This document shows positions 1,431 to 48,429 of a stretch of DNA of 64,000 nucleotides, piece after piece. The stretch comes from Mobula hypostoma. Its lineage: Eukaryota. The stretch is taken from the NCBI RefSeq assembly GCF_963921235.1, contig NC_086097.1, forward strand, positions 173,478,001-173,542,000, read 5' to 3'. The notes below the pieces were generated by a model. The model did not search any database. It was not told where the DNA came from and was given only the letters and a program-made list of their open reading frames with translations. Both the position numbers and the translations under genes were made by a program. Positions within the stretch are counted from its first letter, which is position 1. Each line of letters opens with the position of its first letter.

Positions 1431-1566
1431 CTGCCACCTGATGAAGGGTCACACCCAAAACATCAACTGTTTATTCCTTTCCACAGGTGCTGCCTGGCCT
1501 GCAGAGATCCTCCAGCATTTTGTGTCTGTTGCCTTGGATTTCCAGCGTCTGCAGATTTTCTTGTGT
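1431..1566 (+). mobile_element. Penelope-like 3' terminal module (hammerhead motif plus tail) inserted in CR1
   Basis: CTGATGAAGGGT...GCTGCCTGGCCTGC..CCTCCAGCATTTTGTGT, homologous to 23033-23130; TSD TTGGATTA at 1423-1430 and 1567-1574. Confidence 0.8.
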
Positions 1567-1699
1567 TTGGATTAGTGAGCTGTTTTGGGCCTCTTATCTA
1601 AGAAATATTGTGTTGGCATGCCAGAGGTGGTTCACATGAATGAACCCAAAAATGAAAGGGTTAACATATGAGGAGTGTTTGATAGCTCTGGGCCTGTAC

Positions 1700-2520
1700 T
1701 CACTGTCATAGGAAAGATGCCATTACAATGGAAAGAGTGCAGAAGAGATTTACAAGTATGTTCCCAGGATTCCAGTTGTGAAAAGAGTTTGAGCAGCTTC
1801 AGACTTTATTCACTTGAGCACAGGAAAATGAGTGGCAATCTTATTATCAGCGTCATCATTATCATTTTGTGTTGTGCCGGATGACATGGGAGATCATGGT
1901 CTTGACCATGATTGTTCTTGGAAAATTGTTCTACAGAAGTGGTTTGCCATTGCCATCTTCTGAGCAGTGTCTTTACAAGGTAGGTGACCCTAGCCATTAT
2001 CAATACTCTTCAAAGACTGTCTGCCCTGGTGTCAGCATATAACCAGGACTTGTGATATGCATCAGCGACTCACACGACCATCCACCACCTGGTCCCATGG
2101 CTTCACATGCCCCTGATTGGGGAGCAAAGCAGGAATTACAAGGAGTTCCTTACACATCCTTTGGTAGAGACATATCTCCACCCCACAATCTTAAACAGCT
2201 GTATAATATCATGAGGGGCACAGAAAGGTGAATTTGCAGAGTCTGTTTCCCAGGGTCAGGGAATGAAGAACTGAAGGGCATAGGTGTAAGGCAAGAGGAG
2301 AGAAATGTAATAGGAAATAGAGGGGCAATCTTTTAACCCAGAAGGTGGAATAAGCTGCCAGAGATCAAGTTTGAGGCTAGTACTTTAACAACATTTAAGA
2401 CACTTTGACAGGTAGATTGATAGGAAAGGTGTAGAAGGACATGGGCCAGGCACAGGCAAGTGAGAATCTTGATTGGCATGAACCAGTTAGGCTGAAGGGC
2501 CTGTACCTATACTGCATGAC
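1700..2520 (+). mobile_element. CR1 3' end fragment interrupted by a SINE
   Basis: LQWKECRRDLQ/RLYSLEHRKM region followed by a CR1 3' UTR ending GGGCCTGTACCTATACTG. Confidence 0.7.
1845..2185 (-). mobile_element. SINE with an RTE-type (Bov-A/Sauria-like) 3' segment
   Basis: Minus strand reads GGCAATGGCAAACCACTTCTGTAG...CAATCATGGTC and ends in an (ATG)n tail; homologous copy at 60700-60995. Confidence 0.6.
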
Positions 2521-3059
2521 TTGTGACTTTAAATCAATTTTTCTCCAGAAGTCAAAATGAACAATTTCAATGAATTTTTGAAATTCATCCATCAAGGAAG
2601 ACAGAGCTGATTAATAAGCCGAAATTATCCAACATACAATGAAAAACTGTTGTATAATTAAAGCCTAGAGAACAGAGCACTTCTACATATCAGAAAAAAA
2701 ACAGGATTCTCATCTCCAGACAAAAATAACTTCAGAACGACCTAAGAAAATCTTAAAGATTACGAAAATATTGCCAAGTTAAGACACAGTGAGGTTAAGA
2801 CACTGCAGCAGAAACTAGAACTTAGAGCACTAATTTCAAAGTATTTGCTAATACAGAGGATTCTGATCAACTGGTCCATCAGTTCAGCAGAACAGTTTCT
2901 AACTAGCATCAGTCGTGTGAACTTATGTGGCTGTCAGACACTACACTGTAGAGCAAATACAGTTTTAAACAGCATCACTTAAGTGTGTCTGTGTTCAAAA
3001 AGCAGTGATTTTTCTCACTGATAGTTGGTGAGAAATAAGCAGTAAGGCAATTTTGAATT

Positions 3060-3400
3060 ATTTTGGTCATTGTAGTTTCATGTCCAGTGGAACGAGTAGT
3101 CCCCCCCAAAGTGGGGTCTTCCTTGGTTGCAGTGAATAACCATGAGTTCTTTTGTGGCTTATCATGCCCTTCACTCTCCATAGTGTTGCAGAACAGCCTT
3201 CTTGGCCACTGGATCTCACTGTTGATCTCATCATCCAGTCCTTCGGAACTGACTTCACATGCGAGGCCAGGCATGTCCCTGTTTCATCAGGGTATGAGGC
3301 CCACCAGCTACCTTCACCTGGTTTAGCCCACCGGTTGAAGTGCTGTACCAGAGTGTGGCCACAGTCACTGCAAACAGCTACTTAAGCCACAGGTAACAGC
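3060..3400 (-). mobile_element. Interspersed repeat, probably RTE-clade related
   Basis: GC-richer block abutting a CR1 fragment; resembles RTE 5' regions (recall only). Confidence 0.35.
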
Positions 3401-3404
3401 TGAT

Positions 3405-4150
3405 GCATCTTAATCCTCTGGATGGGCCTCCCATGACCAATTTGGTCAAATGCCTTATTAAAATCCATGTGGGCAACATCCACAGCTCTACCTTCATCAT
3501 TCATCCTCATCACTTCATCGAAATACTCAATCAGGTCAGTAAGACACGACTTGACCCGCACAATTAGAGAGAGCCATGCTGGCTCTACCTAATTAGGCCA
3601 TGGTTTTTCAATACTCATAAATACTATCCCTAAGAATTCTCTCTAGTAACTTCCCTACCACTAATGTGAGACTCACCAGTCTATAGTTTCCAGGATTATC
3701 CCTGGTTCCCTTCTTGAATAATGAAACAACATTTGTTTTTCACCAGTCCTCCAGGACCTTGCCTGTGGCTAGCAAGGACACAAAGATATAGGTCAAGATC
3801 TCAATAATCTCTTCTCTTGCCTCTCCCTATAACCTGGATTATACATATCAGGCCTTGGGGGCTTAACAAACTTAAGGCTCTTTAAGAGACCCGAAGTGAC
3901 TTCTACCTTTACCTTGAAATGCCCTAGCTTATCAATTGGCTCAGTTCTGATCTCTCTATCCTCCACATTCCTTCTTGGAAATACTGATGAAAAGGACCTC
4001 ACCCACATCCAGTGCAACCAAGCAATGTTCGCTCCTTTATCCTTGAGTGCTCCTACCCTCTCTCTAGTTATCCTCTTGCTCTTGATGTATATATAGAATG
4101 CCCTGGGGTCCTCTTTAATCCAATCTGCCAAGGTTTTTTCATGGCTACTC
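3405..4150 (-). mobile_element. CR1 LINE ORF2 fragment
   Basis: IKEDPRAFYIYIKSKRITRERVGALKDKG and KPPRPD motifs; GNYRLVSLT region. Confidence 0.85.
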
Positions 4151-4482
4151 CTACCCTTCAACCATCAGCCTCTTCAATCACTCATCCCAACACTGAACTG
4201 TTCCCGCAACCTATGGACTCACTTTCAAGGACTCTTCATCTCAGGTTCTCAATAGTTATTGATGATTTATTTAGTATTATTATTATTTTGTTTGTTTTTG
4301 TTCTTTTTGTATTGCACATCTTGTTGCCTTTTGCACATAGGTTGGTTGTCCGCCTTGTGTACATTTTTTCATTGATGTCTTGTGTTTCTTTGTATTTACT
4401 ATGAATGCCCACAAGAAAATTATTCTCAGGGTAGTAGATGGTGACATATATATGCCTTGATAATAAATTTATCTTGAACTTT
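4150..4482 (+). mobile_element. Rex1/Babar LINE 3' UTR
   Basis: Ends AGAAAATTATTCTCAGGGTAG...GATAATAAATTTATCTTGAACTTT, the tail type shared with other Rex-like copies. Confidence 0.6.
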
Positions 4483-6069
4483 AAAATAAATAAATCTAAA
4501 TGATTATAAAATGAGCATTTTTAAATGATTATAAAATGAGCATCTTCTAACATGTAAGACAAAACTCACCAACACACGTCACACAATGTAAAGCTCCATT
4601 ACTGAAAATTTATCTACTTTTATAACAGTCACTGAGACCAAGCACAGATGTTAAGAAAACAGAGCACACACAGCAGTAACTTTTAAAGGAAGAGACTTGA
4701 GATGTCATTTGAAAAGTTATGCTTTACATATTATGACTTTCCCCTAAAAACAATCACCATTTATCGTAAACGCTTTCTAATTTGGATTTGTTTTGTTCTT
4801 AAGAATGAGCTTTAATTAGTAGATATGTCTGAAAATTCCCATTTCACATGATATCTCTGAAAAAAAGATGCTACATTTCATGTGGAATCTTTTTTGAAGG
4901 AAAGACTCTTAGAACATGGTTTTCCACATGTGCCCTAACACATTTTCCATACTTCTGAAACTCAAGAGTGTGATGTTCTTTCAAGTTTAGCTGGAACATT
5001 CATTTGCACCATGGAGTCTAGAAATGAGTTGAACATGCAGCCAAGCTGTGCATTTTTCAGCACACAACAAAGCAAAATAGCCATTTTTACTGATTTTATT
5101 TGAAAAGTGCACCCCACCAACTGGAACAAATAGAAATTGGGCATAAAATCAATTCCAGTCACTTAAAACCACAGAGATTTTCTGATGAGATTGACATGTT
5201 TAATTACTCAGTTACCCCCATTCTCCCTGGGACTGGTGATGCCACTATGTCTAACAGATGGGAGCTACAGGCACAGCCGCCAATTTCTTGGGCTCAAAGT
5301 GCATTACTTCAAAAAGACTATCATCCAACCTATGGTTTTATACAGATGAAGGTTTCTATTGTGGGTGAAGATTCTCTGAGACATAAAGAGTTTTTTGGCA
5401 AACTTATTTTGACTGGTTTGCGGTCAATTAGCAGGCAGAAGGAGATTGTAGTGCAAGACATTCTATTTTTAAAGTACAGTTTGAAAATTTTGATTATTTA
5501 TCTTTTGTCAGGATGTTGTATTCTTAGTTGCTTATTTATTAAATAGAAAGTATTCTCAAACATTCAAGATATAGAAAGATATTTCTATAAGTTTAACTCA
5601 TTCCATTGCTATGTCTTGCGTTGGACAACTTCCACAAATGCCAAAAACTAAATTCTTTCCACAATGCTGCAGTACAAGTAATTTCCCTATCCAAAGAGAA
5701 CAATCTACTACATGAAGGTCTACTCAATTAGAAAATTAATACTCAACCCGACTACAGAATTTGTCATTTTTCTCGCAGTGAAAATGGCCTAAAAGGCTTG
5801 GCAGAAAGGCAAAGACAAAACACCTATTACTTGAGTATAAAGGACATGTGTGGGAATAACAAGCAAAGCAATTGGACGCAGATGACTTAATGACCCAGGC
5901 TTACAAAGGCAGCATGGCAAAGTCAGGCTTGGCCTTAGATATTTCAGCAGAAAGTACAGAGCCCTCGTGCCAGGCAGCTATTTCCAGACACACACATTTT
6001 ATATTTCAAATCAAGTTTTTCAATATGCTTTGTAGAACTCCCTCAGTTAATTCAATTTATTCATTAGAT

Positions 6070-6490
6070 CTGTTGGAGGAGCTCAGTGGGTTGAGTAGCA
6101 TCTATTCGGGGGGATAGGGGTATAAAATTGGTGATATTTCAGGTCGAAAGCTTGCATCAGGACTGAATTGATAACTACTCTGTCTTCACTTCCTTGATTC
6201 TGTAGTGCTTTCTAACTAATCACAGCAGATTGAATAAATAATTTAAGAAACAAAAAATGGTACGTATGCATGTATTTAACTTGTCCATACGCACATTATT
6301 TGTTTTGCTCCAGATACAGTAAGAAGTGAGAAGGTGGTAGATGAAAAAGCTGAAGATGAAGGAATCTAATAGGAGAGGACAGTGGGCCATGGAATAAGGG
6401 GAAGGAGGGGAACCAGAGGATGGTGATGGGCAGGTGAGGAGAAGAGAAGAGGTGGGCTGAATGGAGGGTAAGAGAAGGAAGGAGAGGATA
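6070..6490 (-). mobile_element. Penelope-like 3' terminal fragments
   Basis: GGAGGAGCTCAG...GCATCTA...CATCAGGACTG (6075-6165) and purine-rich AGGAATCTAATAGGAGAGG (6310-6490), homologous to 47880-48165. Confidence 0.6.
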
Positions 6491-7891
6491 GAATATCAAG
6501 TAGTCATTTATTATTTCTTCTGAGAGTGAATCACCTCACTACACAGGAATAAAGCAGCTGTCAACAACTGTACAGTGGTGGATTGACAGGTGCAGTGAAG
6601 CATAACCATAAATATTACTTGAAAAGGGCTCAGGTTCCATACTGGATTGTAAACAGAAATTATTCCTAAAGTGAAGGAGACTGACACTGCACTGCCAGTT
6701 GAAGTGAGGATAGGGTATTGGGAAGGCACTACGTATGACAACCATTAAATACAAATTCAAACAGTGGTTTGGCTGTTGACCACTTGCTAACGTGATCTTT
6801 TCTGCTCTACTGAAAACCTCGGCACTATCAGAAGTTGGCCCCACCTATCTACGACCACCAGTGCATTATCTGAATGTCAACCAATGCTAACACATCGAAC
6901 CATTCTGAATAACAGATTGCATAATGGGCAATTAAAATATTCAAGATATTATGAGCCTGTTATTCATCACTCCTAGGATGTCAGGTAGGTAACTTAGATG
7001 TGTCAGCATCTTCGGCACTTAATGTGGGGAAATACAATTCCCAAGCTCTCACATACCCCTAAAGGATTTCTTCATGAAATGACAACATGTCTCCCTCAGA
7101 TAATTATTTTAAAGCACTATGCTTAAAAATAACACTAACTTCATTCTTAAATATGGTGATGTTTCAACTTAATCTAAATATTTTTGTCCCATTCTATATT
7201 TTCACTCTGACAAATATTTAAAAGCTTACTTAAAAGCCAGATCTTCAACTTGACTGACTTGATGACATCATTCCATAATTCCAGAGATCCCTTGAATTGA
7301 TACCACATTGAGAAAGTGGTCGTCTAGGCCACAAAGATCAATAAATCTTTCTGGGCAGCTTACTTTAAGCTGAAATTTTTGAGGAAAGCTTTCTTCTAGA
7401 TGAGCACTGTTGTTTCATTGCTGATAACAAAACGAATTCATCAAATACATAGCATTGTAAGTGGTTTCTTTGGTATTGTTATACTCTTCAGCTGTTAATC
7501 ATTGGCAGAGCAAGGCAAAAATCCTATGGCTTTAGTTCGTACAGTTTGTAATGATTTCCAATAGAAAAAAGGGTTTCCAATTTTACTTTTGTAAATTCCT
7601 AATGAACTTGTTATTACAGAAAATTGAGCCTCACTGATTGACGGATAGGTTATGTCTAATTAGTCTTTGAACAGAAATTAAGAAAGAACAAGTACCTCCT
7701 CGCTGCACTGCAAGTAGAAAAGAACAATATGCATACACCTATTAGGATTTAGATGGTTTGGAACCAATTACATCATGAACTGCAGCACTGCATGCTTATC
7801 AGTGGCAAGTAATTACATTCAGGAGTAAATAACACTACCAGAGACCAGCTGAAAAATTGCGTGCATTACTCCATCTCTGCTTGCTTACGCC

Positions 7892-8719
7892 ATAAGACAA
7901 AAAGACCATAAGATTTTGGAGCAGAATTAGGCCATCTGGCCCATCGAGTCTGCTCCAACATTTCAATATGGCTGGACCACTTAACCTCTTAGCCTTAATT
8001 TCCTGTCTTCTCCCGGTATCCCTTCATGCCCTGGCCAATCAAGAATCTATCAACCTCTGCCTTGAATATACATAATGATTTGGCCTCCACAGCTACCTGT
8101 GGCAACGAATTCCACACATTCCCCACTCTCTGGCTAAAGAAGTTCCTCCTCATCTCTGTTTTAAAATGACGCCCCCACCTCCCCCATCCTGAGGATGCGT
8201 CCTATAATCTCTCCTATGGACTCACCCACCATAGGATAGATCCTCTCCACATCCATTCTATCAAGGCCTTTGACTATTCAATAGGTTTCAATTAGGTCAC
8301 CCCTCATTCGTCTGAATTCCAGTGAAGACAGACTCAGAACCATCAAACACTCTTCATATAGAAAATCATTCAGTCCTGGAATCATTCTCATGAATCTCCT
8401 TTGCACCCTTTCCAGTTTCAGCACATGCTTTCTAAGATAAGGGGCCCAAAATTACTCACAATATTCCAAGTGAGGCCTCACCAGTACTTCATAAAGTCTC
8501 AACATTACATCCTTGCTTTTATATTCGACTCCTCATAAAATGAATGCTAATATCGCACTTGCCTTCCTCACCACAGACTCAACCTACAAATTAACTTTTA
8601 GGGAATCCTGCATAAGGACTCCCAAGTCCATTCACCTCAGATTTTAGTATTTTCTCTCTCTATTTAGAAAATAGTCAACCCTTTCATTTCTTCTACCAAA
8701 GTGCATGACTATTCACTTT
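7892..8719 (-). mobile_element. CR1 3' fragment
   Basis: (CCATAAGA) tail; VRPHLEY and MHFG motifs on the minus strand. Confidence 0.85.
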
Positions 8720-8724
8720 GTAGG

Positions 8725-10087
8725 GAATGTATGGTGTAGGGAAGTGTATGATCATGCACTTTGGTAGAAGGAATAAAGGGGTACATCATTTTCTAAATGG
8801 GATAAAATTCAAAACTCTGAGGTTTGGGAGTCCTTGTGCAGAATTGCCTAAATGTTAATTTGAAGGTTGAGTCTGTCTATCTGAGGCTTCCTTCAGTCAG
8901 AGTTGACCAGGGATGTTGCATTCTGTCGAGATTTGCGAGCCTGGGCAGTACGATATGGAGAGCAAGCTGTTGCCCATGGAGCAAGCTCCATCTCTCCACG
9001 CATTTAATGAACCCAAAGGAATGGCAAACACCGATACAGTTTGGTACCAGCAATGTCACAGGAGCTGCCAGTCAGCACTAAATTCAACCTTAGGTACTCC
9101 AGCTCCGGATCTTTCCCTCAGAGTTTACTCCCAAAGCCTTCCGCATGAGTGGGTATAGCCGCAAGGCAGTGAACGTTTGAGATCAGAGTTCTCCTTCTCC
9201 TAGACGAGCTGCCCACCACGGTTGACGAGCCCCAACTGCCCAAATCGACTGGTTTTAAGGTGCCAGTAACCCACCTTTTTCCCTTCCCTTGGTGGTAGAA
9301 ACGGTTCTGCCCGGCTTAGTAGCTAAGGCACACATGAAGGCCAGGAGCTGGACTTGGTTGTCAGAGGTTATTTGAGGCACGTGCCATTGGGAGCACTTAA
9401 TAGGTAGTTGGAGCTTGTTCCCATTACCACCACCAGGAAGGAAGACAAATGCAATGTTAATATTCATTTCGAGAGAACTAGAATATAAGAGCAAAAACGT
9501 AATGCTGAGGCTTTATAAGGCATTGATTGGATCACACTTCTGAGTACTGTGAGCAGTTTTGGGCCCCTTATCTAAGAAAAGATCTGCAGGCATTGGAGAG
9601 GATCCAGAGCAGGTTGATGAGAATGATTCTGGGAATGGAAGGGAAAGGGTTAACATATGAGGACTGTTTGATGGCTCTTGGCCTGTACTTGCTTGAGTTC
9701 AGAAGAATTGGGAGGGGGGAGTGGATTTCATTGAAATCTATCAAATATTGAAAAGTCTAGATAGAGTAGATGTGGAGAGGATGTTTCCTATTGTGAGTGA
9801 GTCTAGGACCAGAAGGCACAGCCTCAGAATAGAGCAATGTCCATTTAGAACACAGATGAGGAGGATATTATTTTTAGCTGGAGGGAAGTGAATCTGTAGA
9901 ATTTCATTGTTGTGGAGGCCAAATCAATAAGTAAGTTTAAAGCAGAGGTTGATAGTTAAGGTGTCACAAGTTATGGAGAGAAGGCAGGAGAATACTGTGG
10001 AGAGGAATAATAAATCAGCCATGATGGAATGGCTGAGCAGACTCGATGGGATGAATAGCCTAATTCTGTTCCTGTCTTATGGTCTTA
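8725..10087 (+). mobile_element. CR1 3' fragment (head-to-head with 7892-8719), interrupted by a SINE
   Basis: KCMIMHFGRRNKG and YCEQFWAPYLRKDLQALERIQ; ends TCTTATGGTCTTA. Confidence 0.85.
8875..9434 (-). mobile_element. ~560-bp SINE-like insertion in CR1
   Basis: Splits CR1 at GGTTGAGTC|..AGGAAGACAAATGCAATG; its 3' part is homologous to the 3' half of the SINE at 47183-47489. Confidence 0.65.
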
Positions 10088-10089
10088 TC

Positions 10090-11396: not shown

Positions 11397-11472
11397 CGTG
11401 TGTGTGTGTGTGTGTGTGTGTCTGTGTGTGTGTGTCTGTGTGTGTGTATATATATATACACACACACACACA

Positions 11473-11514
<42 letters not shown>

Positions 11515-11519
11515 TATAT
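11397..11519. repeat. Compound (TG)n-(TA)n-(CA)n microsatellite forming an imperfect palindrome
   Basis: Seen directly. Confidence 0.95.
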
Positions 11520-12574: not shown

Positions 12575-13790
12575 ACGTACAGCCTAAATCCTTCTGTAGC
12601 CTCTCTACTTTCTCAAAACTACCTGCCCATCCACCTATCTTCATATAGTCTGTAAACTCTGCAACAAAGCCATCAATTCCATCATCCAAATCATTGACAT
12701 ATAATGTAAAAAGAATTTTTAACAACAGGCCCCTGTGGAACACCTCCAGTCACTGGCAGCCAACCAGAAAAGGTATCCTTTATTCGCACTCTTTGCCCCC
12801 TGCCAATCACCGCTGCTTTATCCATGCTAGAATCTTCCATGTAATACCATGAGCTCGTAGCTTATTAAGCAGCTTCATGTGTGGCACCTTGTCAATCCAT
12901 GTACGCAACATCAACTGATTCTCCTTTGTCTATCCTGCTTATTATTTCTTCAAAGAATTCAACAGATTTGTCAAGCAAGATTTTCCCTTGAGGAAACCAT
13001 GTTGACTACAGCCTGTTTCATCATATGCCTCCAAGTACCCTGAGACCTCAACCTTTTGTGTGTGTTGCTCCAACATCTTCCTAACCACTGAGGTCAGTCT
13101 AACTGGCCTATAATTTCCTTTCTTCTTCCTTTCTCCCTTCTTGAAGAGTGGAGTGACACTTGCACTTTTCCAGTCTTCCGAAACCATTCCAGAATCTAGT
13201 GATTCTTGAAAGGTCATTACTAATGCCTCAACAACCTCTTCAGCCACCTCTTTCAAAATCCTGGAGTATACACCATTTGGTCCAGGTGACTTAACTAACT
13301 TCAGACCTTTCAGTTTCCCAAGAACCTTCTCACTAGTTACTGTAACTTCACACACTTCATGGCCTCTGACACCTGGATCTTCTACCATACTGCTAGTGTC
13401 TTCTACATTGAAGACTGATACAAAGTATTTGTTCAGTTCATCTGCCATTTCCTTGTCCCCCATTACTACCTCTCCAGCGTCTGATATCTACTTGCCTCTC
13501 TTTTACACATTATGTATCTGAAGAATATTATTGGCTAGCTCACTTTCAATCCATCTTTACTTTCTTAATGACTTTTAGTTACCTTCTGTGGGTTTTTAAA
13601 AGATTCCCAATCCTCTAACTTCCCACTCATGTTTACTCTATTATATGCCCTTGCTTTGGCTTTTATTTTGGTTTGACTTCTCTTGTTAGACATAGTTGTA
13701 TCAACTTGCCTTTAGAACACTTTTTCCTCTTTGGATATATATATCCTGTGCCTTCTGAATTGCTCAACGAAATAACTGAGATGGCTGAAT
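12575..13790 (-). mobile_element. CR1 LINE ORF2 fragment
   Basis: ORF 12942-13463: KSPGPNG, WKSASVTPLFKKG, GNYRPVRLTS, SQHGFLKGKSCLTNL. Confidence 0.92.
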
Positions 13791-16976: not shown

Positions 16977-18585
16977 AAAAAAAAAGTTTGGGCACCCCTG
17001 GTCAAAATTTCTGTTACTGTGAATAGCTAAGCGAGTAAAAGATGACCTGATTTCCAAAAGGCATGAAGTTAAAGATGACACATTTCTTTAATATTTTAAG
17101 CAAGATTACTTTTTTATTTCCATCTTTTACGGTTTCAAAATAACAAAAAAGGAAAAGGGCCTGAAACAAAAGTTTGGGCACCCTGCACGGTCAGTACTTA
17201 GTAACACCCCCTTTGGCAAGTATCACAGCTTGTAAACGCTTTCTGTAGCCAGCTAAGTCTTTCAACTCTTGTTTGGGGGATTTTCGCCCATTCTTCCTTG
17301 CAAAAGGCTTCCAGTTCTGTGAGATTCTTGGGCCATCCTGCATGCACTGCTCTTTTGAGGTCTATCCACAGATTCTCGATGATGTTTAGGTCGGGGGACT
17401 GTGAGGCCCATGGCAAAACCTTCAGCTTGCACCTCTTGAGGTAGTCCATTGTGGATTTCGAGGTGTGTTTAGGATCCTGTTGTAGAACCCATCCTCTTTT
17501 CATCTTCAGCTTTTTTATAGACGGTGTGATGTTTGCTTCTAGAATTTGCTGGCATTTAATTGAATTCGTTCTTCCTTCTACCAGTGAAATGTTCTCCGTG
17601 CCACTGGCTGCAACACAAGCCCAAAGCGAGATCGATCCACCCCCCGTGCTTAACAGTTGGAGAGGTGTTCTTTTCATGAAACTCTACACCCTTTTTTCTC
17701 CAAACATATCTTTGCTCACTGTGACCAAAAAGTTCTATTTTAACTTCATCAGTCCACAGGACTTGTTCCCAAAATGCATCAGACTTGTTTAGCTGTTCCT
17801 TTGCAAACTTCTGATGCTGAGTTTTGTGGTGAGGACGCAGGAAAAGTTTTCTTCCGGTGACTCTTCCATGCAGGTAATTTTTGTGCAGATATCACTGCAC
17901 AGTAGAACAGTGCATCACCACTCCAGAATCTGCTAAATCTTCCTGAAGGTCTTTTGCAGTCAAATGGGGGTTTTGATTTGCCTTTCTAGCAATCCTATGA
18001 GCAGTTCTCTCGGAAAGTTTTCTTGGCCTTCCAGACGTCAACTTGACCTTCACCATTCCTGTTAACTGCCATTTCTCAATTACATTATGAACTGAGGAAA
18101 CGGCTACCTGAAAACGCTTTGCTATCTTCTTATAGCCTTCTGCTGATTTGTGGGCATCATTTATTTTAATGTTCAGAGTGCTAGGCAGCTGCTTAGAGAA
18201 GCCCATTGCTGCTGATTGTTGAGACAAGGTTTGAGGAGTCAGGGTATTTATAAAGCTTTGAAACTTACATCACCTGGCCTTTCATAACATTGACTGTGAA
18301 CAAGTCATAGCCCTAACAAGCTAATTAAGGTGTGGGACCTTGGTAAAAGTTATCTGAGAGCTCAAATCTCTTGGGGTGCCCAAACTTTTGCAGGGTGCTC
18401 CTTTCCTTTTTTTCACTCTAAAATTGTACAAAACAAAAATAATACACTAATCTTGCTTAAAATGTTGAAAAGAATGTTTCATCTTTAACTTTATGACTTT
18501 TGGAGATCAGTTCATCTTCTACTCACTTAACTATTCACAGTAACAGAAATTTTGACCGGGGTGCCCAAACTTTTGCATGCCACTG
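16977..18585 (-). mobile_element. Tc1-family IR/DR transposon, defective
   Basis: ~200-bp TIRs with repeated AAAGTTTGGGCACCC sites; right end TTTGCATGCCACTG|TA; tip of the left TIR is lost. Confidence 0.93.
17191..18206 (-). pseudogene. Tc1 DD34E transposase pseudogene
   Basis: MGFSKQL...GYKKIAKRF...SGRPRKLS; GGGSISLWAC; QQD(ND deleted)PKH...WASQSPDLNIIENLW; stops and frameshifts. Confidence 0.9.
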
Positions 18586-19070: not shown

Positions 19071-19074
19071 ATCC

Positions 19075-22000: not shown

Positions 22001-22740
22001 ATGTCTTCCTTTTTTAAAGAAAGGGGCTTCCCTCCACTATCAACTCTGCTCTTAAACGCATCTCCCCCATTTCACGTACATCTGCTCTCACTCCATCCTC
22101 CCGCCACCCCACTAGGAATAGGGTTCCCCTGGTCCTCACCTACAACCCCACCAGCCTCCGGGTCCAACATATTATTCTCCGTAACTTCCGCCACCTCCAA
22201 CGGGATCCCACCACTAAGCACATCTTTCCCTCCCCGCCTCTCTCTGCATTCCGCAGGGATCGCTCCCTACACAACTCCCTTGTCGATTCGTCCCCCCCAT
22301 CCCTCCCCACTGATCTCCCTCCTGGCACTTATCCGTGTAAGCGGAACAAGTGCTACACATGCCCTTACACTTCCTCCCTTACCACCATTCAGGGCCCCAA
22401 ACAGTCCTTCCAGGTGAGGCAACACTTCACCTCTGAGTTGACTGGGGTGATATACTGCGTCCGGTGCTCCCGATGTGGCCTTTTATATATTGGCGAGACC
22501 CGACGCAGACTGGGAGACCGCTTTGCTGAACATCTACGCTCTGTCCGCCAGAGAAAGCAGGATCTCCCAGTGGCCACACATTTTAATTCCACATCCCATT
22601 CCCATTCTGACATGTCTATCCACGGCCTCCTCTACTGTAAAGATGAAGCCACACTCAGTTTGGAGGAACAACACCTTATATTCCGTCTGGGTAGCCTCCA
22701 ACCTGATGGCATGAACATCAACTTCTCTAACTTCCGCTAA
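22001..22740 (+). pseudogene. Penelope RT C-terminus/linker plus GIY-YIG endonuclease (one frameshift near 22031)
   Basis: Open frame 22033-22740: RVPLVLTYNP...AFRRDRSL...PCKRNKCYTC...VIYCVRCSRCGLLYIGETRRRLGDRFAEH...LGSLQPDGMN. Confidence 0.9.
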
Positions 22741-23032
22741 GGCCCCACCTCCCCCTCGTACCCCATCTGTTACTTATTTTTATGCACACATTCTTTCTCT
22801 CACTCTCCTTTTTCTCCCTCTGTCCCTCTGAATATACCTCTTGCCCATCCTCTGGGTCCCCCCCCCCATCTTTCTTCCCAGACCTCCTGTCCCATGATCC
22901 TCTCGTATCCCCTTTTGCCTATCACCTGTCCAGCTCTTGGTGCCATCCCTCCCCCTCCTGTCTTCTCCTATCATTTTGGATCTCCCCCTCCCCCTCCAAC
23001 TTTCAAATCCCTTACTCACTCTTCCTTCAGTT

Positions 23033-23068
23033 AGTCCTGACGAAGGGTCTCGGCCTCAAACATCGACT
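23033..23068 (+). ncRNA. Minimal type I hammerhead ribozyme motif (mutated) at the Penelope 3' end
   Basis: AGTC-CTGACGA-AGGGTCTCGGCCT-CAAAC-ATC-GACT: stem I AGTC/GACT and CUGANGA core present; GAAA box mutated. Confidence 0.65.
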
Positions 23069-23229
23069 GCACCTCTTCCTACAGATGCTGCTTGGCCTGC
23101 TGCGTTCACCAGCAACTTTGATGTGTGTTGCAAAAAGAAGCTACTTTTTTCCCCATTCCTCTCTCATAATCGAATCGTTGCCTTTCTACTTCTTCGTTTT
23201 GCTTTTTGGAAAAAATACACATATTGAGA

Positions 23230-27782: not shown

Positions 27783-29366
27783 CAGTGCCTATAAAAAGTA
27801 TTCACCCCCTTGGAAGTTATCATGTTTTATTGTTTTACAACATCGAACCACAGTGGATTTGATTTAGCTTTTTTGACACTGATTAACAGAAAAAGACCCT
27901 TTCATGTCAAAGTTAAAACAGATCTCTACAAAGTGATCTAAATTAATTACAAATACAAAACACAAAATAATCGATAGCATAAGTATTCCCCGCCTCCCCC
28001 CCCTTTAATATGACACACCAAATCATCACTTGTGCAGCCAACTGGCTTTAGAAATCACATAATTAGTTAAATAGAGACCACCTGTGTGCAGTCAAGGTGT
28101 TTCAATTGATTATAGTAAAAATACACCTGTACCTGGAAGGTCCAACTGCTGGTGAGTCAGTATCTGGCAAAACCTATACCATGAAGACAAAAGAACACAC
28201 CAAGCAACTTTGCAAAAAGGTTATTTAAAAGCACACGTCAGGAGATGGATACAAGAACATTTCTAAGTCATTAAATATTCCTCGGAGTACAGTTAAGTCA
28301 GTCATCAAAAAATGGAAAGAATATTGCACAACTGCAAATTTGTCTAGAGCAGGTTACCCTCAAAAACTAAGTGACTGTACAAGAAGGGGAATAGTGAGGG
28401 AAGCCACCAAGAGACCTATAATAACTCTGGAGAAGTCACAAGCTTCAGTGGCTGAGATGGGAGAGGCTACACATACACCTGTTAACCAGGTGCTTCACCA
28501 GTCGCAGCTTTATGGGAGAGTAGCAAAGAGAAAGCCATTGCTGAAAAAAAAACTCATGTGTAATCTCAGCTGGAGTTTGCCAGAAGGCACGTTGGAGATT
28601 CAGAAGCCAGCCAAAAGGTTCTATGGTCTGATGGAACCAAAAATCCAACATTCTGGCCGTGAGAGTAATAGCTATGTTTGGCGTAATCCAAACACCCCAC
28701 ATCACCTAAAACACACCATCTCCACCATGAAGCATGGTGGTGGCTGCATCATACTGTGTGTATGCTTCACTGCAGCATACCTGGAAGGCTAATGAAGGTA
28801 CAGAGTAAGATGAATACAGCAAAATGCAGGGAAATCCTGGAGGAAAACCTGATGCAGTCTGCAGAGAACTGCAACTGGGAAAAGATTTGTTTTTGAGCAA
28901 GACAATGACCCCAAGCGTAAAGCTAAAGCCACACAAGAATGGCTTAAAAACAACAAAGTTAATGTTCTGGAGTGACCAAGTCAGAGTCCAGACCTCAAAC
29001 CAATTGAGAATTTTGGCTGGACTTGAAAAGGGCTGTTCACTCACGATCCCTATGCAATCTTCCAGAGCTTGAGCAGTTTTGCAAAGAAGGATGGGGAAAA
29101 ATTGCAGTGTCCAGATCTGCAAATCTGATAGAGACTGATCCACACAGACTCGAGGCTGTAATTGCTGCAAAGGTGCATCCAGTAAATACTGACTTGAAGG
29201 AGGTGAATAGTTACACAAACAATTATTTTTGTGTTTTATATTTGTAATTAACTTAGATCACTTTGCAGAGGTCTGTTTTCAGTTGATCAGTGTCAGAAAA
29301 AGCCAAATGTTATAAAACATGAAAACTTCCAAATGAGGAGGGTTTGAATACTTTTTATAGGCACTG
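27783..29366 (+). mobile_element. Full-length Tc1 (Passport-like) transposon
   Basis: TA TSD on both sides; perfect 22-bp terminal IR CAGTGCCTATAAAAAGTATTCA / TGAATACTTTTTATAGGCACTG; ~1.58 kb. Confidence 0.95.
28181..29192 (+). pseudogene. Passport-like Tc1 transposase pseudogene
   Basis: MKTKEH...GYKNISKSLNIPRSTVKSVIKKWKEY...REATKRP...LYGRVAKRKPLLK...KHGGGCI...QDNDPK...SQSPDLKPIEN...KY*; several stops and frameshifts. Confidence 0.9.
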
Positions 29367-33560: not shown

Positions 33561-33684
33561 CTCTTTAGTCATTCAGGAAATTTATTATAAACTTGATATA
33601 CAGCAGTCTGTTTCGGACTTTGTGTTTAGTTTGTGCCAGAAGACAAATTTACTGCTAGTCCTTCGTAAGCTGGAGACTTCAAAC

Positions 33685-34674: not shown

Positions 34675-34883
34675 ATGTGTTATGAAATTTGTTAACTTCC
34701 TAGCAGCAGTATAATACATAATACAGAAAGAAAATAAATACATTGATTAAAGTATATGTATATAGAAATAATTAAAAATAGTTCAAAAGCAGAAATATAT
34801 ATTATTTAACTAAAAAGTGAGGTATTGTTCATGGGTTCAATGTCCAATTAGGAATCGTATGGCAGAAGGGGAAGAAGCTGGTC
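34675..34883 (-). mobile_element. Rex1/Babar 3' tail
   Basis: Matches 56410-56650 (GAAATTTGTTAACTT..GCAGCAGT...TTCAATGTCCA.TTAGGAAT...GAAGAAGCTG). Confidence 0.75.
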
Positions 34884-34896
34884 CTCACTTACCTGG

Positions 34897-35817
34897 ATGA
34901 GTATAGCCCAACAATATTCAAGAGTGAGACGGACCATCATGCACAAGTCCCTGGACAACGGGGGCAAGAACGTTCCCAATGTCGCCCTCACCCTGATGGC
35001 CAGCTTCGTATGTGGCTGCATCAGGTTGTGTGTAGAACCCAGGTATGTGGGCACCAAGTACCACTATGTGCCCAGGTTCTACCTGTCGCCCTGGCTACAA
35101 AGGATGGGTCTGGCCCCACTCCCGCACAACGCCCCAGTCAGCTGGTCATTGCCACCATACCTGTCCTACGTAGCAAAGTTCTTCCAGGAGAATGCCTTTG
35201 ACCACAGGGCCATCAGGCAGTGGTCGACACGTAATGTCCTGCAGGCACTGCAGGAGAAGGACGTGATGGACACAGTGGGGTGGTTCCCTGAGCAGACTGT
35301 CCAGTTCATCTGGCAAAATGCCTCATCGCCAGATCTCATCAACAGGCACAAAGACCTCACCGGGCTGGCGGTGAGAGGGGCCCTCCCAGTCAGAGCCCTC
35401 CTGTACGCCCGGAACGTCGTCTCCGCACCCCACTGCCCACAGGAGGACTGCAGTGAGGAGGAGTCTGTGACCCACCTCTTTGCACACTGTCAGTTCGCAA
35501 AGAGGGTGTGGAGGAGGATGGACGGGCTAGTGTCACGTTTCATCCCCAGCAGCTGCGTAACAGAGGACTCTCTGATCTACGGGCTGTTCCTGGGGACGCA
35601 CACGGAGACCAACATCCAGTGCTGCTGGCAGATCATCAACTTGGTGAAGGACGCTCTTTGGTCGGCCCGAAACTTGATGATCTACCAGCACATGGAGATG
35701 TCCGTGGCAGAATGCTGCCGACTGGCACATTCTCGGCTGCAGGAGTACGTGCTGAGGGACGCACTGAAACTCGGTGCAGCCACCGCAAGGGCCCGGTGGG
35801 GAACGACCACGGTATAG
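34897..35817 (+). CDS. Tx1 ORF2 C-terminal region with CCHC zinc knuckle (zf-RVT); first 9 codons come from the host LINE
   Basis: KSLDNGGKNVPN...LAVRGALPV...CPQEDCSEEESVTHLFAHCQFAKRVW...VKDALWSARN. Confidence 0.8.
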   Translation: MSIAQQYSRVRRTIMHKSLDNGGKNVPNVALTLMASFVCGCIRLCVEPRYVGTKYHYVPRFYLSPWLQRMGLAPLPHNAPVSWSLPPYLSYVAKFFQENAFDHRAIRQWSTRNVLQALQEKDVMDTVGWFPEQTVQFIWQNASSPDLINRHKDLTGLAVRGALPVRALLYARNVVSAPHCPQEDCSEEESVTHLFAHCQFAKRVWRRMDGLVSRFIPSSCVTEDSLIYGLFLGTHTETNIQCCWQIINLVKDALWSARNLMIYQHMEMSVAECCRLAHSRLQEYVLRDALKLGAATARARWGTTTV

Positions 35818-40275: not shown

Positions 40276-41415
40276 ACATAGAACATAGAACAGTACAGCA
40301 CAATACAGGCCCTTTGGCCCACAATGTTATGCCGACCCTTAAACCCTGCCTCCCATATAACCCCCACCTTAAATTCCTCCATATACCTGTCTAGTAGTCT
40401 GTTAGACTTCAGGAGTGTATCTGCCTCCACCACTAACTCAGGCAGTGCATTCTACGCACCAACCATTCTCTGAGTAAAAAACCTTCCTCTCATATCCCCC
40501 TTGAACTTCCCACCCTTTACCTTAAAGCCATATCCTCTTGTACTGAACAGTGGTGCCCTGGGGAAGAGGCGTTGGCTGTCCACTCTAACTATTCCTCTTA
40601 ATATTTTGTATACCTCTATCATGTCTCCTCTCATCCTCCTTCTCTTCAAAGAGTAAAGCCCTAGCTCCCTTAATCTCTGATCATAATGCATACTCTCTAA
40701 ACCAGGCAGCATCCTGGTAAATCTCCTCTGTACCCTTTCCAATGCTTCCACATCCTTCCTATAGTGAGGTGACCAGACTGGACACAGTACTCCAAGTGTG
40801 GCCTAACCAGAGTTTTATACAGCGGCATCATTACATCACAACTCTTAAACTCTATCCCTCGACTTATGAAAGCTAACACCCCATAAGCTTTCTTGACCAC
40901 CCTATCCACTTGTAAGGCAACTTTCAGGGATCTGTGGACATGTACCCCCAGATCCCTCTGCTCCTCCACACTGCCAAGTGTCCTGCCATTTACTTTGTAC
41001 TCTGCCTTGAAGTTCGTCCTTCCAAAATGTACCACCTCACACTTCTCCGGGTTGAACTCCATCTGCCACTTCTCAGCCCACTTCTGCATCCTATCAATGT
41101 CTCTCTGCAATCTTCGACAATACTCTACACTAGCCACAGCACTATCAACCTTTGTGTCGTCTGCAAACTTGCCAACCCACCCTTCTACCCCCACATCCAG
41201 GTCGTTAATAAAAATCACAAAAAGTAGAGGTCCCAGAACTGATCCTTGTGGGACACCAATAGTCACAACCCTCCGATCCAAATGTACTCCCTCTGCTTTC
41301 TGCAGGCAAGCCAATTCTGAATCCACCTGGCCAAACTTCCCTGGATCCCATGCCTTCTGACTTTCTGAATAAGCCTACCATGTGGAACCTTGTCAAATGC
41401 CTTACTAAAATCCAT
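40276..41415 (-). mobile_element. Young CR1 3' fragment (RT)
   Basis: ORFs 40697-41326 (GVPQGSVLGPLLF, KFADDTK, RPHLEYCVQ) and 40452-40751; (CATAGAA) tail. Confidence 0.95.
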
Positions 41416-43640: not shown

Positions 43641-43945
43641 TACAGCAATTAAGTAGCAGTGGATAACAAACCTGCACCACTGATCCAGGGAGAGAAGTTA
43701 AAATCTCACAGTGGCAACTGGAGAAGTTAAGTTAATTGCAAAGATCTGTAATGAAAACCTGACTTAAATAAAGGCAATTGTGAACCTATTGCATTGCTGT
43801 AAAATCTGCTGTCATTGAAGTGAGGAATTTGACTATTATTACCTGGCTTGTCCTGAATGTGATTTCAGACCGACTAATTCCTCATCAGATCAGGGGTCAG
43901 CAGGGAATGGAAAACCAGGCTTTTCCACATCCAATGATTGAATAG
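43640..43945 (+). mobile_element. tRNA-derived SINE (family of 33235-33560)
   Basis: AAATCTCACAGTGGCAACTGG...CACATCCAATGATTGAAT. Confidence 0.5.
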
Positions 43946-44038
43946 AAGTTCAAAATATCAAGTAAATTTATGGCTCCTGTTGGTTTGTTCACCTCCTGCC
44001 TAGTCAAAAAAAAAGCTAACATATGAAGATTGGAAGTA

Positions 44039-44400
44039 CAAGGGGTGATTGATAAGTTCATGGCCTAAGCTAGAAGGAGTCAATTTTAGAAAACCTGGCA
44101 CATTTATTTTTCCTACATTTACACACTTAGTCCAGCGGTCATGGAGCATTAGGGTCCCTTCTTTCTGGAAGTCGGCGTCTTGGACCTCCAGAAAGTGGTC
44201 CACAGCAGGGGTGATTGATAAGTTTGTAGCCCAAGGTAGAAGGAGATGAGTTATTAACTTCAAACTTTCTGCATTTTCACTCAAAGAGTTGAACTGCAAA
44301 GGCATTAACGAGAGCTGTACAACTCATCTCCTTCTACCTTAGGCCACGAACTTACCTGGTGGTCCAAGACACTCTCGTTACATGCACGTGCCATAGGAAT
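44039..44400 (-). mobile_element. Mariner-derived non-autonomous element
   Basis: TA|CAAGGGGTGATTGATAAGTTC TIR; minus strand encodes a mariner C-terminus AVDHFLEVQDADFQKEGTLMLHDRWTKCVNVG; further TIR copies at 44207-44250 and (inverted) 44323-44354. Confidence 0.75.
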
Positions 44401-44504
44401 AGCATATTCAAAGGTCTCAAAGGTACAATTTAATGTCAGAGAAATGTATACAATATACATTCTGAAATGCTTTTTCTTCCAGTTAAGTTCCGGTTAAGCT
44501 GGCA

Positions 44505-45197
44505 CTTCATACAACATTTCCACAGTCGACATCTTCTGGATAGCTCAGGAAACTATTCATTTTGCTTCTTTTATATCTTTTATGTCTATTTTTTGTCTTG
44601 AATCTGTTTTTGGAACTGTTGGAGCCTGTGATTTGCAGTTTAGAGATTGATCCAGAGCTTTGCTGTCTCCGAGAGGATACCGGGAGGTAGAGGCAGCAAA
44701 CACGGGCCTTGTGGTGAGGAGACTGCGGGATGGGGCACGAGCCGATGTTCAACTCCATTTTGCTGATTAAAGCTTCCATTGATCACCAATTAAAGCGATG
44801 AGGGAAATTGAAACATGGTGGCGAATGCAAAAGGTGAGCACCGGTTGCCTGCCTTCTGATGACTGGTGGGATCGCTCTGCTACCGGAAAGGGGAGACCCG
44901 CCTTTTGATCACTGTTGAGATCACTGCTACCGGAGAGGGAAGCCTGTGTGCCTGGAGAATGTTACCCAGGCTTTTCTGCATTTTGGATATGGATATGGAC
45001 TTGGACAATGGACTATGGAATTTTTCCAGTCTTAACGTTTTTTAACATTGTGTTTTTCGCCCAATCTTTTTCTTTTTTGTCTAGGGGAGGGGGATACGAG
45101 GGTTGATTACATTCTTTTCTTTCTTGGTTTCGTGACTACCTGGAGAAGAAGAATTTCAGAGTTGTACACTTTGATTATAAATGGACCTTTGAACTAT
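44505..45197 (+). mobile_element. Non-autonomous retroelement with a Rex1/Babar-type tail
   Basis: GC-rich non-coding body; ends GGAGAAGAAGAATTTCAGAGTTGTA...ATAAATGGACCTTTGAAC. Confidence 0.5.
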
Positions 45198-46091
45198 TTA
45201 GGAAAAAGTGTGATGAAGGTTACAGAAGATCACAGAAAAATGTTAAAACAAAAAAAAATTAAAACAGGACCATTAACCATAACTTAGTCAAATGAGCACG
45301 CAAAATTTAGTGCAGTATAGATAGAAAGTGCAGAGAGGCAAGGCTACGTTTCAGCAGTATTGAATAACCTTGGCTTAATTCAGCAAAAGCTTTATCCTCT
45401 TTCTGTCCATAAAACCTAGACTCTAAATCCATTGTCAGGAATTTTGAACTATTTTCTGAGCTTGAACTAATTACAATTTAAAGGAGACTTAAGAAACAAA
45501 CTGTTTAAGCTGTTGCCAAGTTATTCTTTACTAGCTCATTCAGACCTTATGTGGGTCTGCTGGGATCTTCAAAGGATTTTTTTTTACCAATTAAGTTTAA
45601 ATTTGTGCAAGGAGTGCTGACATTTTTGAAAAGAATAGCTCACAAGACTAACAAAAATTATCCCAGCAATAATCATCAATCTTACTAAAATTACATTGTG
45701 AAAACACCACTAATCCATACACATCAAATCAGCAAAGGTAATAGCATAGAGTCATAATCCTTCGAGGAGTACTCCCAAGAGTTTTGCGTGAAAATGTTTT
45801 CTTCGGTATAGTGTCAGTTAACACATATTTAGTTCATTATTATTTTCACTGTGCGATTATTCATTAGAAGTTATTAAGATCCTTTGAGATGAGTCTCAAC
45901 GAATTCAGAAGGGCTTGACAATTACATTTATTAAAGATCTTCTGTCATATTTAAGTGGAATTTATGGCAATAGTTTACTTGCTTTCTAATCCAATGTAGA
46001 GCAACAGGAATGTACAACAATCACTAGAACTTCAACAAATGCAATAAAATAAACAGAAGTACAACTGAAGCGAAATGGTAAAAAAAAATCA

Positions 46092-46190
46092 TCACACTCA
46101 AAATGCTGGAGGAACTCAGTGGGCCAGGTAGCATCTATGGAAAAGAGTACAGTCCACGTTTTAGGAACAGACCCGTCAGCAGGACTATTT
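46092..46190 (-). mobile_element. Penelope terminal module with decayed hammerhead
   Basis: AAAATGCTGGAGGAACTCAG...CAGTCCACGTTTTAGG...CAGCAGGACT. Confidence 0.75.
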
Positions 46191-46509
46191 CCCACCCACC
46201 TACCCACCACACACGCACTACTCCAACGTTAGGACTCTATATTGATGAAAGAAAGGAATATGTGTACATGTCTCTCATCTTTTTTAATGGTTGGGTTTAC
46301 TTTAAATTGTCCTACCAATCATTTTGGTGTCAACAATTATTCAATGGGTCTGTGGCATTACTGGAGAAATTCGCTACCTGAAATACGGAAATTCAATGTT
46401 CATAGCATTGGGCTGCAGGCCACCGCAGTGGAATATGAGCTGTTGATCCTCTTGTTGAGATGTTACAGTGCAACTTTACAAAATACTGGTTAGGATACAC
46501 TTGAGCACT

Positions 46510-46850
46510 TTCCCATCCCCTTTTCCGTCTCTCACCTCATCTTCTTGCCCACCCATTGCATCCTCTCTAGTGTTCCACACCCCTTTTTCTTTCTTCCATG
46601 GCCTTCTGTCTCTTTCACCAATCAACTTCCCAGCTCTTTACTTCATCCCTCCCCCTTCAGGTTTCACCTATCACCTGGTGTTTCTCTCTCCCTCCCCCCA
46701 CCTTTTAAATCTACTCAAATTTTTTTCTCCAGTTCTGCCGAAGGGTTTCGGCCGGAAATGTCGACTGTACTTTTTTCCATAGATGTTGAGTTCCTCCAGC
46801 ATTCTGTGTGTTTTGCTCAGATTTCCAGCATCTGCAGGTTTTCTCTTGTT
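46510..46850 (+). mobile_element. Penelope 3' UTR plus terminal module with hammerhead motif
   Basis: CAGTTCTGCCGAAGGGTTTCGGCCGGAAATGTCGACTG (46730-46767), then GAGTTCCTCCAGCATT. Confidence 0.8.
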
Positions 46851-47080
46851 TTCAATTCCAGCCGCTACCTGTAGGAAGTTTGTATATTCTCCCCGTGACC
46901 GTGTGGGTTTCCTCCAGGTGCTCCAGTTTCCTCCCACAATCCAAAGACACACCTGTTGGTAGGTTAAATGGTCGTTGTAAACTGTCCCATAATTAGGTTA
47001 GGATTAAATTGGGGAATTACTGGGCAGCGAGGATAAAAGAGCCAGACAACATACTCAAAGCTGTATTTCAAAAATAAAAA
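46851..47080 (+). mobile_element. V-SINE (HE1-like), 5'-truncated
   Basis: TTCTCCCCGTGACCGTGTGGGTTTCCTCCAGGTGCTCCAGTTTCCTCCCACAATCCAAAGAC. Confidence 0.85.
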
Positions 47081-47182
47081 GAAATTTCAGAAGAGTATAG
47101 TCAACGCTTCTGGCTGAGACTCTTCATCAGAAAGGTTCTTCATCAGGAATGTTATTTTCATTAACATTAATAATAATGGATT

Positions 47183-47489
47183 GTTGGCGAGTGGCCAAGT
47201 GGTTAAGGCATCAGTCTAGTGATCTGAAGGTCGCTAGTTCAAGCCTCAGCTGAGGCAGCATGTTGTGTCCTTGAGCAAGACACTTAACTACACATTGCTC
47301 TGCAACAACACCGGTGCCAAGCTGTATCAGCCCTAGTGCCCTTCCCTTGGACAACCTCGGTGGCGTGGAGGGGGGAGACTTGCAGCATGGGCAACTGCCA
47401 GTCTTCCATACAACCTTGCCCAGGCCTGCGCCCTGGAAATTCTTCCAAGGCACAAATCCATGGTCTCACTAGACTAACGGATGCCTTTA
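47183..47489 (+). mobile_element. Full-length tRNA-derived SINE
   Basis: A box TGGCCAAGTGG and B box AGTTCAAGCC; TGTCCTTGAGCAAG core; 14-bp TSD AATAATAATGGATT (47169-47182, 47490-47503). Confidence 0.9.
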
Positions 47490-47877
47490 AATAATAATGG
47501 ATTAAATGCTAAACTATTCGGATTTGAAAAAAAATGTCGTCAATGATTCGATGGAGTTGGGCATCAATCTGAGTGATGAAGAGAACAAAACACTAACAAA
47601 GTATCAGGTTTATCACATAATGAGTTATCTTAAGCTCAACTATAAAATTAGTTCAGTTGCTCGCATTCTCATATCACACATCAGTCACAGTCAAAATCGA
47701 GGTTGGTTCTCCACAGTCTTCACAAAGTGTAATCAATATGACACCCCTCTCAAGTAAATACAAAAGGATTTATGGCTGTATCTTGAAGAAAACTGTTTGC
47801 TTATTACCTACTAACAGTAATACATAAACATAGTTGTTTAGATTCATTGGTATTCTGATTTAACTACTGCATTAGAC

Positions 47878-48425
47878 AACACACACAAAATGCTGGAGGA
47901 AATCATCAAGTTAGGCAGCAACTATGGAAATAAATAAACAGTCAACATTTCAGGCCAAGACTCTTCTTCAGGACTGGAAAGGCAGGAAGAAGATGGCAGA
48001 ATAAAAAGGTGGGCACAGGGGAAGGAGAATAGCTAGAAGGTCATAGGCGAAGCCAGGTGGGTAGGAAAGTTAAAGAGTTGAAGAGGAAGGAATCTGATAG
48101 GAGAGGAGAGTGGACCATAGGAGAAAGGAATAAAGGAGTGTATCTAGGAGAAGGTGATAGGCAGGTGTAGGGCTGTTTGGGGCCCTGAATGCAGGTGAGG
48201 TAGGAGGTGAACGGGCACATGTACCACTTAGGCTGCTTGCAGGGATAAGTGCTGGGAGGAAGACTAGTGGGACATGACGAAAGGATAAGGGAATCATGGT
48301 GGGAGCAATCCCGCAGAAAGTGGGTTATTCGGGGTGGGAGGGGAGGAAAGGTAAAGATATGTTCAGTGGTAGGATCCCTTTGGAGATGACGAAAGTTGCA
48401 GAGGATGATGTGTGGATTAGACTCT
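47878..48425 (-). mobile_element. Penelope-like element with internal deletion (terminal module, 3' UTR, linker fragment)
   Basis: Terminal module as above; GGGCTGTTTGGGGCCCTGAAT and AGGATCCC..TGGAGATGACGAAAGTTGC match the reverse complement of 22170-22410. Confidence 0.8.
47939..47976 (-). ncRNA. Minimal type I hammerhead ribozyme motif, best-preserved core in the window
   Basis: Minus strand: CAGTC-CTGAAGA-AGAGTCTTGGCCT-GAAAT-GTT-GACTG; 5-bp stem I, CUGANGA and GAAA intact, GUU triplet. Confidence 0.65.
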
Positions 48426-48429
48426 GGAG

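Follow-up and report, generated by a model that had tools for sequence, protein, structure and literature searches.

Hammerhead motifs in a ray genome as probable relics of the 3' ends of an abundant Neptune-type Penelope-like element

A stretch of 64 kb from the genome of the ray Mobula hypostoma (NCBI RefSeq assembly GCF_963921235.1, contig NC_086097.1, positions 173,478,001 to 173,542,000 of the forward strand; hereafter the window, in whose coordinates all positions are given) was examined at seven sites resembling hammerhead ribozymes, located at 1438, 6128, 23033, 46150, 46730, 47099 and 47939. We consider it very probable that these sites are old 5'-truncated 3' ends, comprising pseudo-long terminal repeat (pLTR) and tail, of a very high-copy Neptune-type Penelope-like element (PLE) of the ray, and that the parent element carried a minimal type I hammerhead. 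The density of the sites is explained by the very high copy number of a repeat and not by a system of functional ribozymes spread over the genome, and the sites themselves, as solo relic pLTR ends and not working ribozymes, are best read as dead.

The seven sites had been reported in an earlier note on this DNA as copies of one motif family carried by Penelope termini, at about one per 9 kb. Their coordinates and strands were right in all seven cases, and seven copies in 64 kb correspond to one per 9.1 kb. Each copy was recovered by a profile made from the other six, with E values from 6.8e-9 to 0.022 as compared to best values of 0.92-2.2 in the reversed window, so the assignment to one family was borne out. 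A profile derived exclusively from 29 loci outside the window (described below) gave five of the seven sites as its top five matches (E 2.5e-4 to 0.15). The claim that the seven copies fit the proposed consensus did not survive: none of them matches it even with up to three mismatches, and the scored positions that differ from the consensus number 4-12 per copy. A family-independent hammerhead descriptor returned no intact motif in the window, and when it was relaxed to one core mismatch the sole match was unrelated, at 54205, and at chance level (0-2 in shuffles). None of the 17 Rfam matches of the window at E<=5 was to a hammerhead family, and the threshold score was not reached. A covariance model trained on the window copies detected no eighth motif-bearing copy in the window. 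A weak family match at 12999-13069 (+; E 0.021), possibly a tiny tail scrap inside a fragment of a long interspersed nuclear element (LINE), was not counted.

The damage to most copies mentioned in the earlier note is real but was understated, since it affects all seven. A core letter is altered in six copies: G12 in three, A6 in two, and A9, A15.1 and C17 (to G) in one each. The copy at 47939 is the only one that retains all core letters; it has U17 and three of the four stem II pairs, the remaining one being an A-C mismatch. In the copies at 1438 and 47099 little of the stem I 5' arm is left. The decay follows the CpG pattern that had been suspected: 24 of 54 CpG positions are changed (18 of them by C>T or G>A) as compared to 22 of 193 other positions (Fisher p=3e-7), in a count that omits position 7, the missing 5' arms of the 1438 and 47099 copies, and the loop of the 1438 copy.

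The link to a PLE is most direct at 22018-23131, where the open reading frame (ORF), 3' untranslated region (UTR), motif and tail follow each other in one run. This run starts with a 5'-truncated ORF remnant of 240 amino acids (22018-22740, +) that encodes a CX4CxxC linker and a GIY-YIG endonuclease with a CCHH motif. It is continued by a pyrimidine-rich 3' UTR or pLTR body (22741-23031, +), the motif (23032-23069, +; G12C and G16.2A, with C3 at 23037, 297 nucleotides (nt) past the stop codon) and a short tail (23070-23131, +) ending about 62 nt behind stem I. The remnant matches Pfam PF01541 (GIY-YIG) with an E value of 1.2e-4, which is at the cut-off, and its protein is 91% identical to a protein of M. 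hypostoma and 76% identical to a Hypanus protein. ORF sequence accompanies three of the seven copies (at 23033, at 47939 and, inverted, beside 46730), and the motif lies in a pLTR behind a PLE ORF here and at two further copies. In an alignment of 23 sequences the linker cysteines C107, C112 and C115 are conserved, corresponding to the CX2-5CxxC feature, and in the CCHH motif C150, C153 and H172 are invariant and H188 nearly so. The CX2-5CxxC linker is described as a mark of Neptune and Nematis that is absent from Penelope and Poseidon (PMC8557442), and the Penelope-like origin proposed earlier can thus be refined to a Neptune-type element. As a separate observation, the ray gene models P0027, P0002 and P0005, which bear the names of host genes (STARD3NL, DIPK1C, CHID1 isoforms), contain the terminus or ORF of this element, which may be exonisation or an annotation artefact.

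What the undamaged motif looked like was deduced from public contigs and proteins. Contigs of 4 of 24 listed sequencing runs were aligned to 46080-46880 at 80% likeness, giving 74,806, 64,738, 6,808 and 4,322 records; one of these runs, X1, may be the source sample and gives no independent support. In the X1 contigs the private damage of the window copies is reverted at 46734 (91%), 46162 (G12; 88%), 46175 (92%), 46155 (C17; 61%) and 46754 (54%). The consensus of contig loose ends behind 46149 (532, 393 and 50 contigs) is undamaged from G8 onwards, covering stem II, the second box, the palindrome, the cleavage triplet and stem I. An undamaged counterpart of the 23033 copy is translated as part of two Mobula proteins, whose codons fix A6 and G12. 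From the window majority, the contig loose ends and the two Mobula peptides together, the family consensus contains CUGANGA and GAAA as its two boxes, as well as U16.1 and H17. As compared to a unique spacer, sequencing depth was 1.9-3.2e5 times higher over the tail and 2.6-3.7e4 times higher over the motif bin, values which indicate an order of magnitude only and not a copy number. Pattern scans for further ray copies gave none in viral contigs, metagenomes or prokaryote genomes.

Related elements carry the motif at the same place. Metagenome loci with a related endonuclease were collected (the best 80 of 326), and 25 of the 67 loci with at least 300 nt of downstream sequence have an intact sense-strand motif downstream of the ORF, as compared to none upstream and three on the other strand. 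With one core mismatch allowed, 45 of 73 loci have a motif that follows the ORF at a distance of 78-167 nt, as compared to none of 72 upstream control windows. For analysis of covariation, the seven window copies were combined with 29 rows hand-picked from 47 to drop near-duplicates. In these 36 rows 84.8% of the paired cells are complementary versus 67.4% after shuffling, a value reached by none of 500 shuffles, and controls with slid pairings gave at most 39%. Two-sided changes occur in all five pairs of stem I and in three of the four pairs of stem II. The absence of stem covariation or of either box had been named as refuting the proposal; both boxes are in the family consensus and the stems covary. 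The motif of one locus (L052) is identical to the Acropora digitifera Neptune row of Fig. S3/Table S1 in PMC4209133. Among the other loci, L005 (1076-1119) and L006 (2519-2562) show a U3-A8 covariation of the hammerhead core, a variant reported for Cercyon elements of Schistosoma (PMC4209133), and L023 and L078 show the inverted-pLTR arrangement, with a further copy of the motif that lies upstream of the ORF end and on the other strand.

By every feature that could be tested with these data, the ray motif is a member of the minimal hammerhead class of PLEs described by Cervera and De la Pena (2014). Similar to the motifs in PMC4209133, it has both core boxes, an additional base that separates position 9 from position 10.1, the G10.1-C11.1 pair and a short helix I, as well as the palindromic 15.2-16.2 segment without loop 3, and it mostly occurs as solo copies from truncated elements. 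The minimal type I anatomy and the loop-less palindromic stem III claimed in the earlier note are thus present, and the layout is near-identical to that of the Acropora Neptune row. Table S1 and Fig. S3 of that study, as far as seen, include no cartilaginous fish. Two differences concern the 3' UTR, which is longer in the ray (297 nt versus 78-167 nt in the related loci), and the copy number, which seems far above the 4,000-9,000 of coelacanth and Xenopus (PMC4209133), judged from rough depth ratios of 1e4-1e5 that are no true count. Endonuclease-containing (EN+) Neptune PLEs (Arkhipova 2006, as described in PMC8557442) share the C-terminal GIY-YIG domain with CCHH, the CX2-5CxxC linker, an inverted 5'-truncated piece next to the pLTR and an optional tail of 30-40 bp; unlike in these elements, the reverse transcriptase (RT) domain of the ray element is absent from the window, and the linker motif is shared by Nematis. 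A literature search found no paper on this PLE family in cartilaginous fish, with the reservation that a preprint (bioRxiv 10.64898/2026.07.22.740005), in which type I motifs and PLEs are described from one chondrichthyan genome, may list the family in its supplements.

Several points weigh against this picture or narrow it. Neither a full element nor a tandem pLTR pair was found within the window. The Neptune-type assignment is read from the linker and CCHH motifs, not from a tree, and Nematis shares the linker motif. Within the consensus, positions C3 to A6 lie outside the contig-derived part from G8 onwards and depend on the window copies (A6 in five of seven) and the two Mobula peptides. 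The signal of covariation is due to the 29 loci from outside the window, which were picked after a stem II filter, and since related rows can beat a shuffle it is to be read as support and not as a p-value; the seven ray copies alone contribute one two-sided change. Non-CpG core letters are changed at 4 of 70 positions as compared to 18 of 123 elsewhere (p=0.097), a difference that is not significant and is biased by the way in which copies were picked. Finally, nearest-neighbour energies favour an inactive duplex (-33.7 kcal/mol) and two monomers (-25.4 kcal/mol) over the double hammerhead (-19.9 kcal/mol), tertiary contacts being outside the model. The same energies agree with a parent motif that does not fold actively unaided.

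The ends of the insertions provide clues about how the element may have moved. All seven motif copies extend across the cut site, with sequence retained on either side of it. Behind stem I, the 3' ends lie at about 62 nt in four of nine cases, at 97-100 nt in three and at shorter distances in two, and the loose ends of the contigs gather at 46099 and 46851. The 5' ends show a wide scatter, the outermost lying in the ORF and the innermost within the motif, and none is at the cut site. A convincing target-site duplication was found at one of the seven insertions searched, the 133-bp unit at 1434-1566, which is flanked by 11 bp in a LINE. A 9-bp repeat at 46372/46863 was rejected as a target-site duplication, since the right copy seems to lie inside a neighbouring repeat. 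A tail hairpin was not established, the z scores in three copies being -2.2, -0.8 and -0.4.

A mechanism consistent with these data would start from a parent element whose ORF for RT and endonuclease is followed, after about 300 nt, by a minimal type I hammerhead. Because stem III is only a 4-nt palindrome, the active site would take two copies of the motif, as in tandem transcripts or transcripts with two pLTRs. Self-cleavage and its dimer dependence are carried over from the literature on other species; by analogy with PMC4209133, cleavage of the parent motif should be weak and depend on a second copy to form stem III, and the protein of the element probably acts as a chaperone, as in other PLEs. 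Two alternative sites, both downstream of the motif and separated by about 35-40 nt, would serve as starts of reverse transcription. All copies with a motif continue across the cut site, which argues for templates that were uncut there; on such RNA, uncut at the 3' motif, reverse transcription would mostly stop early. The early stops would scatter solo units of motif and tail throughout the genome, and deamination at CpG sites would then erode them. A close parallel is the Poseidon element PAc of Anolis (Frangieh et al. 2024, PMC11167929). There, too, the motif lies upstream of two internal sites at which RT starts and the copies in the genome extend across the cut site, and uncut RNA is reported as the main template. 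PAc belongs to another clade, and it is in PAc that cleavage, which needs the protein, has been demonstrated.

The same study bears on whether cleavage matters at all, since hammerhead core mutants of the Anolis element still insert in vitro (PMC11167929). In the ray window, position 6 is a C in two copies, those at 46150 and 46730, and in none of the 29 outside rows; the two copies also share a similar linker behind the motif. The A6C change cripples cleavage in Mg2+ (PMC7151607); in the phage Bcep176 hammerhead, which has the same change naturally, cleavage is lowered in Mg2+ and not in Mn2+ (PMC7151607, PMC3088659). The phage case is one assayed monomeric ribozyme, whereas the ray change is seen in two retroelement copies that are damaged, and the subfamily is unproven. 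The 46730 copy, which is derived from ORF-bearing RNA, also has changes that favour a competing hairpin of 6-7 bp. It is conceivable, at somewhat less than an even chance, that a sub-lineage of the ray Neptune element with A6C was amplified to thousands of copies from ORF-bearing transcripts. The contig data bear on this indirectly: the position-6 sites (46738 and 46179) are not among the 40 contig variants listed, for which the best share in any run is at least 0.64, and neighbouring private changes have shares of 0.90-1.00. If these variants were ranked by share, more than one third of the depth at 46738 would not be A, which would point to an amplified C6 subfamily. However, the ranking rule was guessed, there are 100 further variants besides the 40, and the reference favours contigs that resemble it.

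A broader explanation would regard the motif as vestigial or optional, with only the tail being important for mobilisation and lineages with a crippled A6C core being amplified as well as intact ones. The shared A6C transversion, the argument from the contig variants and the in vitro insertion by Anolis mutants are in its favour. Nevertheless, the chance that two of seven copies share a transversion at some site is 0.1-0.6; look-ups of C6-frame peptides found none (0 of 36 and 0 of 6 candidates scored), and a profile search for C6-frame proteins gave four proteins, of which the two relevant ones are both of the A6 type. Moreover, the motif is kept across distant Neptune relatives and is therefore selected in most lineages. 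We regard this explanation as less likely than not. An A6C sub-lineage amplified to thousands of copies would, if real, be natural evidence on a genomic scale that PLE retrotransposition can do without efficient self-cleavage; alternatively, a vertebrate retroelement would use an Mn2+-preferring core variant so far assayed only in a phage.

The short copies could also have arisen from a non-autonomous family, similar to retrozymes or short interspersed nuclear elements (SINEs), that moves as small self-cleaved, possibly circular RNAs. Several copies indeed consist only of motif and tail (98-133 bp), one of them with a target-site duplication. Animal non-LTR retrozymes have a type I motif derived from pLTRs and are found in one chondrichthyan genome (bioRxiv 10.64898/2026.07.22.740005). 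They are defined by tandem units that each contain the motif, whereas none of the seven tandem arrays in the ray window covers a motif site. The scatter of the 5' ends and the ORF sequence in three of seven copies also do not fit, and we consider such an origin improbable. It is most unlikely that any of the dispersed copies still serve as ribozymes, be it as working ones or in host use, for instance by forming heterodimers within a single transcript. The copies at 46150, 47099 and 47939 do lie on one strand within 1.9 kb, and that at 47939, with its complete core, could on paper pair with 47099, but the resulting site would have three of four pairs in stem II, wobbles in stem III and U17, the decay tracks CpG mutability and strikes G12 and C17, and no host exon was recognised among the 26 window ORFs scanned with Pfam.

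With the sites taken as relic Neptune-type ends, the immediate significance is small: a described motif is extended to an unusually abundant ray family. The abundance is an advantage for judging what hammerheads do in PLEs: it has been suggested that they may only parasitise PLEs (PMC8557442), and cleavage proved unnecessary for insertion in vitro (PMC11167929). With tens of thousands of copies, counts of core-variant subfamilies and of 5' ends can test the need for cleavage, and it is here that the possible A6C sub-lineage would be of importance.

The individual insertions differ in how much of the element is left. The 133-bp unit at 1434-1566 (+) contains the motif at 1438-1469, with the 5' arm of stem I cut off and the changes G12A, G16.2A and G1.1A, and a long tail. 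It is bordered by a left target-site duplication at 1423-1433 (+), which has one mismatch to the right one at 1567-1577 (+); the host is a LINE fragment, and a paralogous uninterrupted LINE stretch carries the target sequence once. The most decayed copy (6070-6165, -; end approximate) consists of the motif at 6128-6165, with A9C and 12 differences, and a partial tail; about 145 nt upstream of this motif lies a pyrimidine-rich 3' UTR piece (6312-6502, -) with 71-74% identity to the other UTRs. The solo copy at 46090-46187 (-) has the motif at 46150-46187 (A6C, G12A, C17G) and a short tail. Its neighbour at 46508-46851 (+) comprises 3' UTR, the motif at 46730-46767 (A6C, C11.1G, C15.2U) and a long tail with a 12-nt deletion. 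Inverted last ORF codons at 46375-46480 (-) abut the UTR of this copy, and such an inverted 5'-truncated piece beside a pLTR is an arrangement described for PLEs (PMC8557442). The insertion at 47091-47152 (-) has the motif at 47099-47132 with A15.1G and a broken stem II, a short duplicate of the first core box before the motif, and almost no tail. A deleted element at 47877-48429 (-) retains an ORF remnant (48169-48429), UTR, the motif at 47939-47976 and a short tail. Additionally, two family ends not listed in the earlier note are located head to head at 58957-59134: the segment at 58957-59039 (-) has the 3' part of the motif only and that at 59036-59134 (+) the tail only.

The window as a whole is CpG-poor (observed/expected ratio 0.25) and crowded with pieces of LINEs and Tc1 elements. 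Reverse-transcriptase fragments from different kinds of LINE are found at 34852-35817 (+), 40452-41374 (-), 56884-57684 (-) and 62152-63144 (-), one of the four with a zf-RVT and one with an ALKBH8_N match. Transposase fragments of the Tc1/Sleeping Beauty type are located at 17198-18269 (-) and 28229-28792 (+). The segment at 47186-47490 (+) has a tRNA-like head (26.5 bits with Rfam tRNA, below the gathering score; no genes with ARAGORN) and is probably a tRNA-derived SINE. Facing (GT)25 and (AC)27 arrays at 11398-11511 form a long perfect hairpin, for which the Rfam microRNA matches are below threshold and compositional, and a minisatellite with 4.2 copies of a 32-bp unit is present at 53590-53724.

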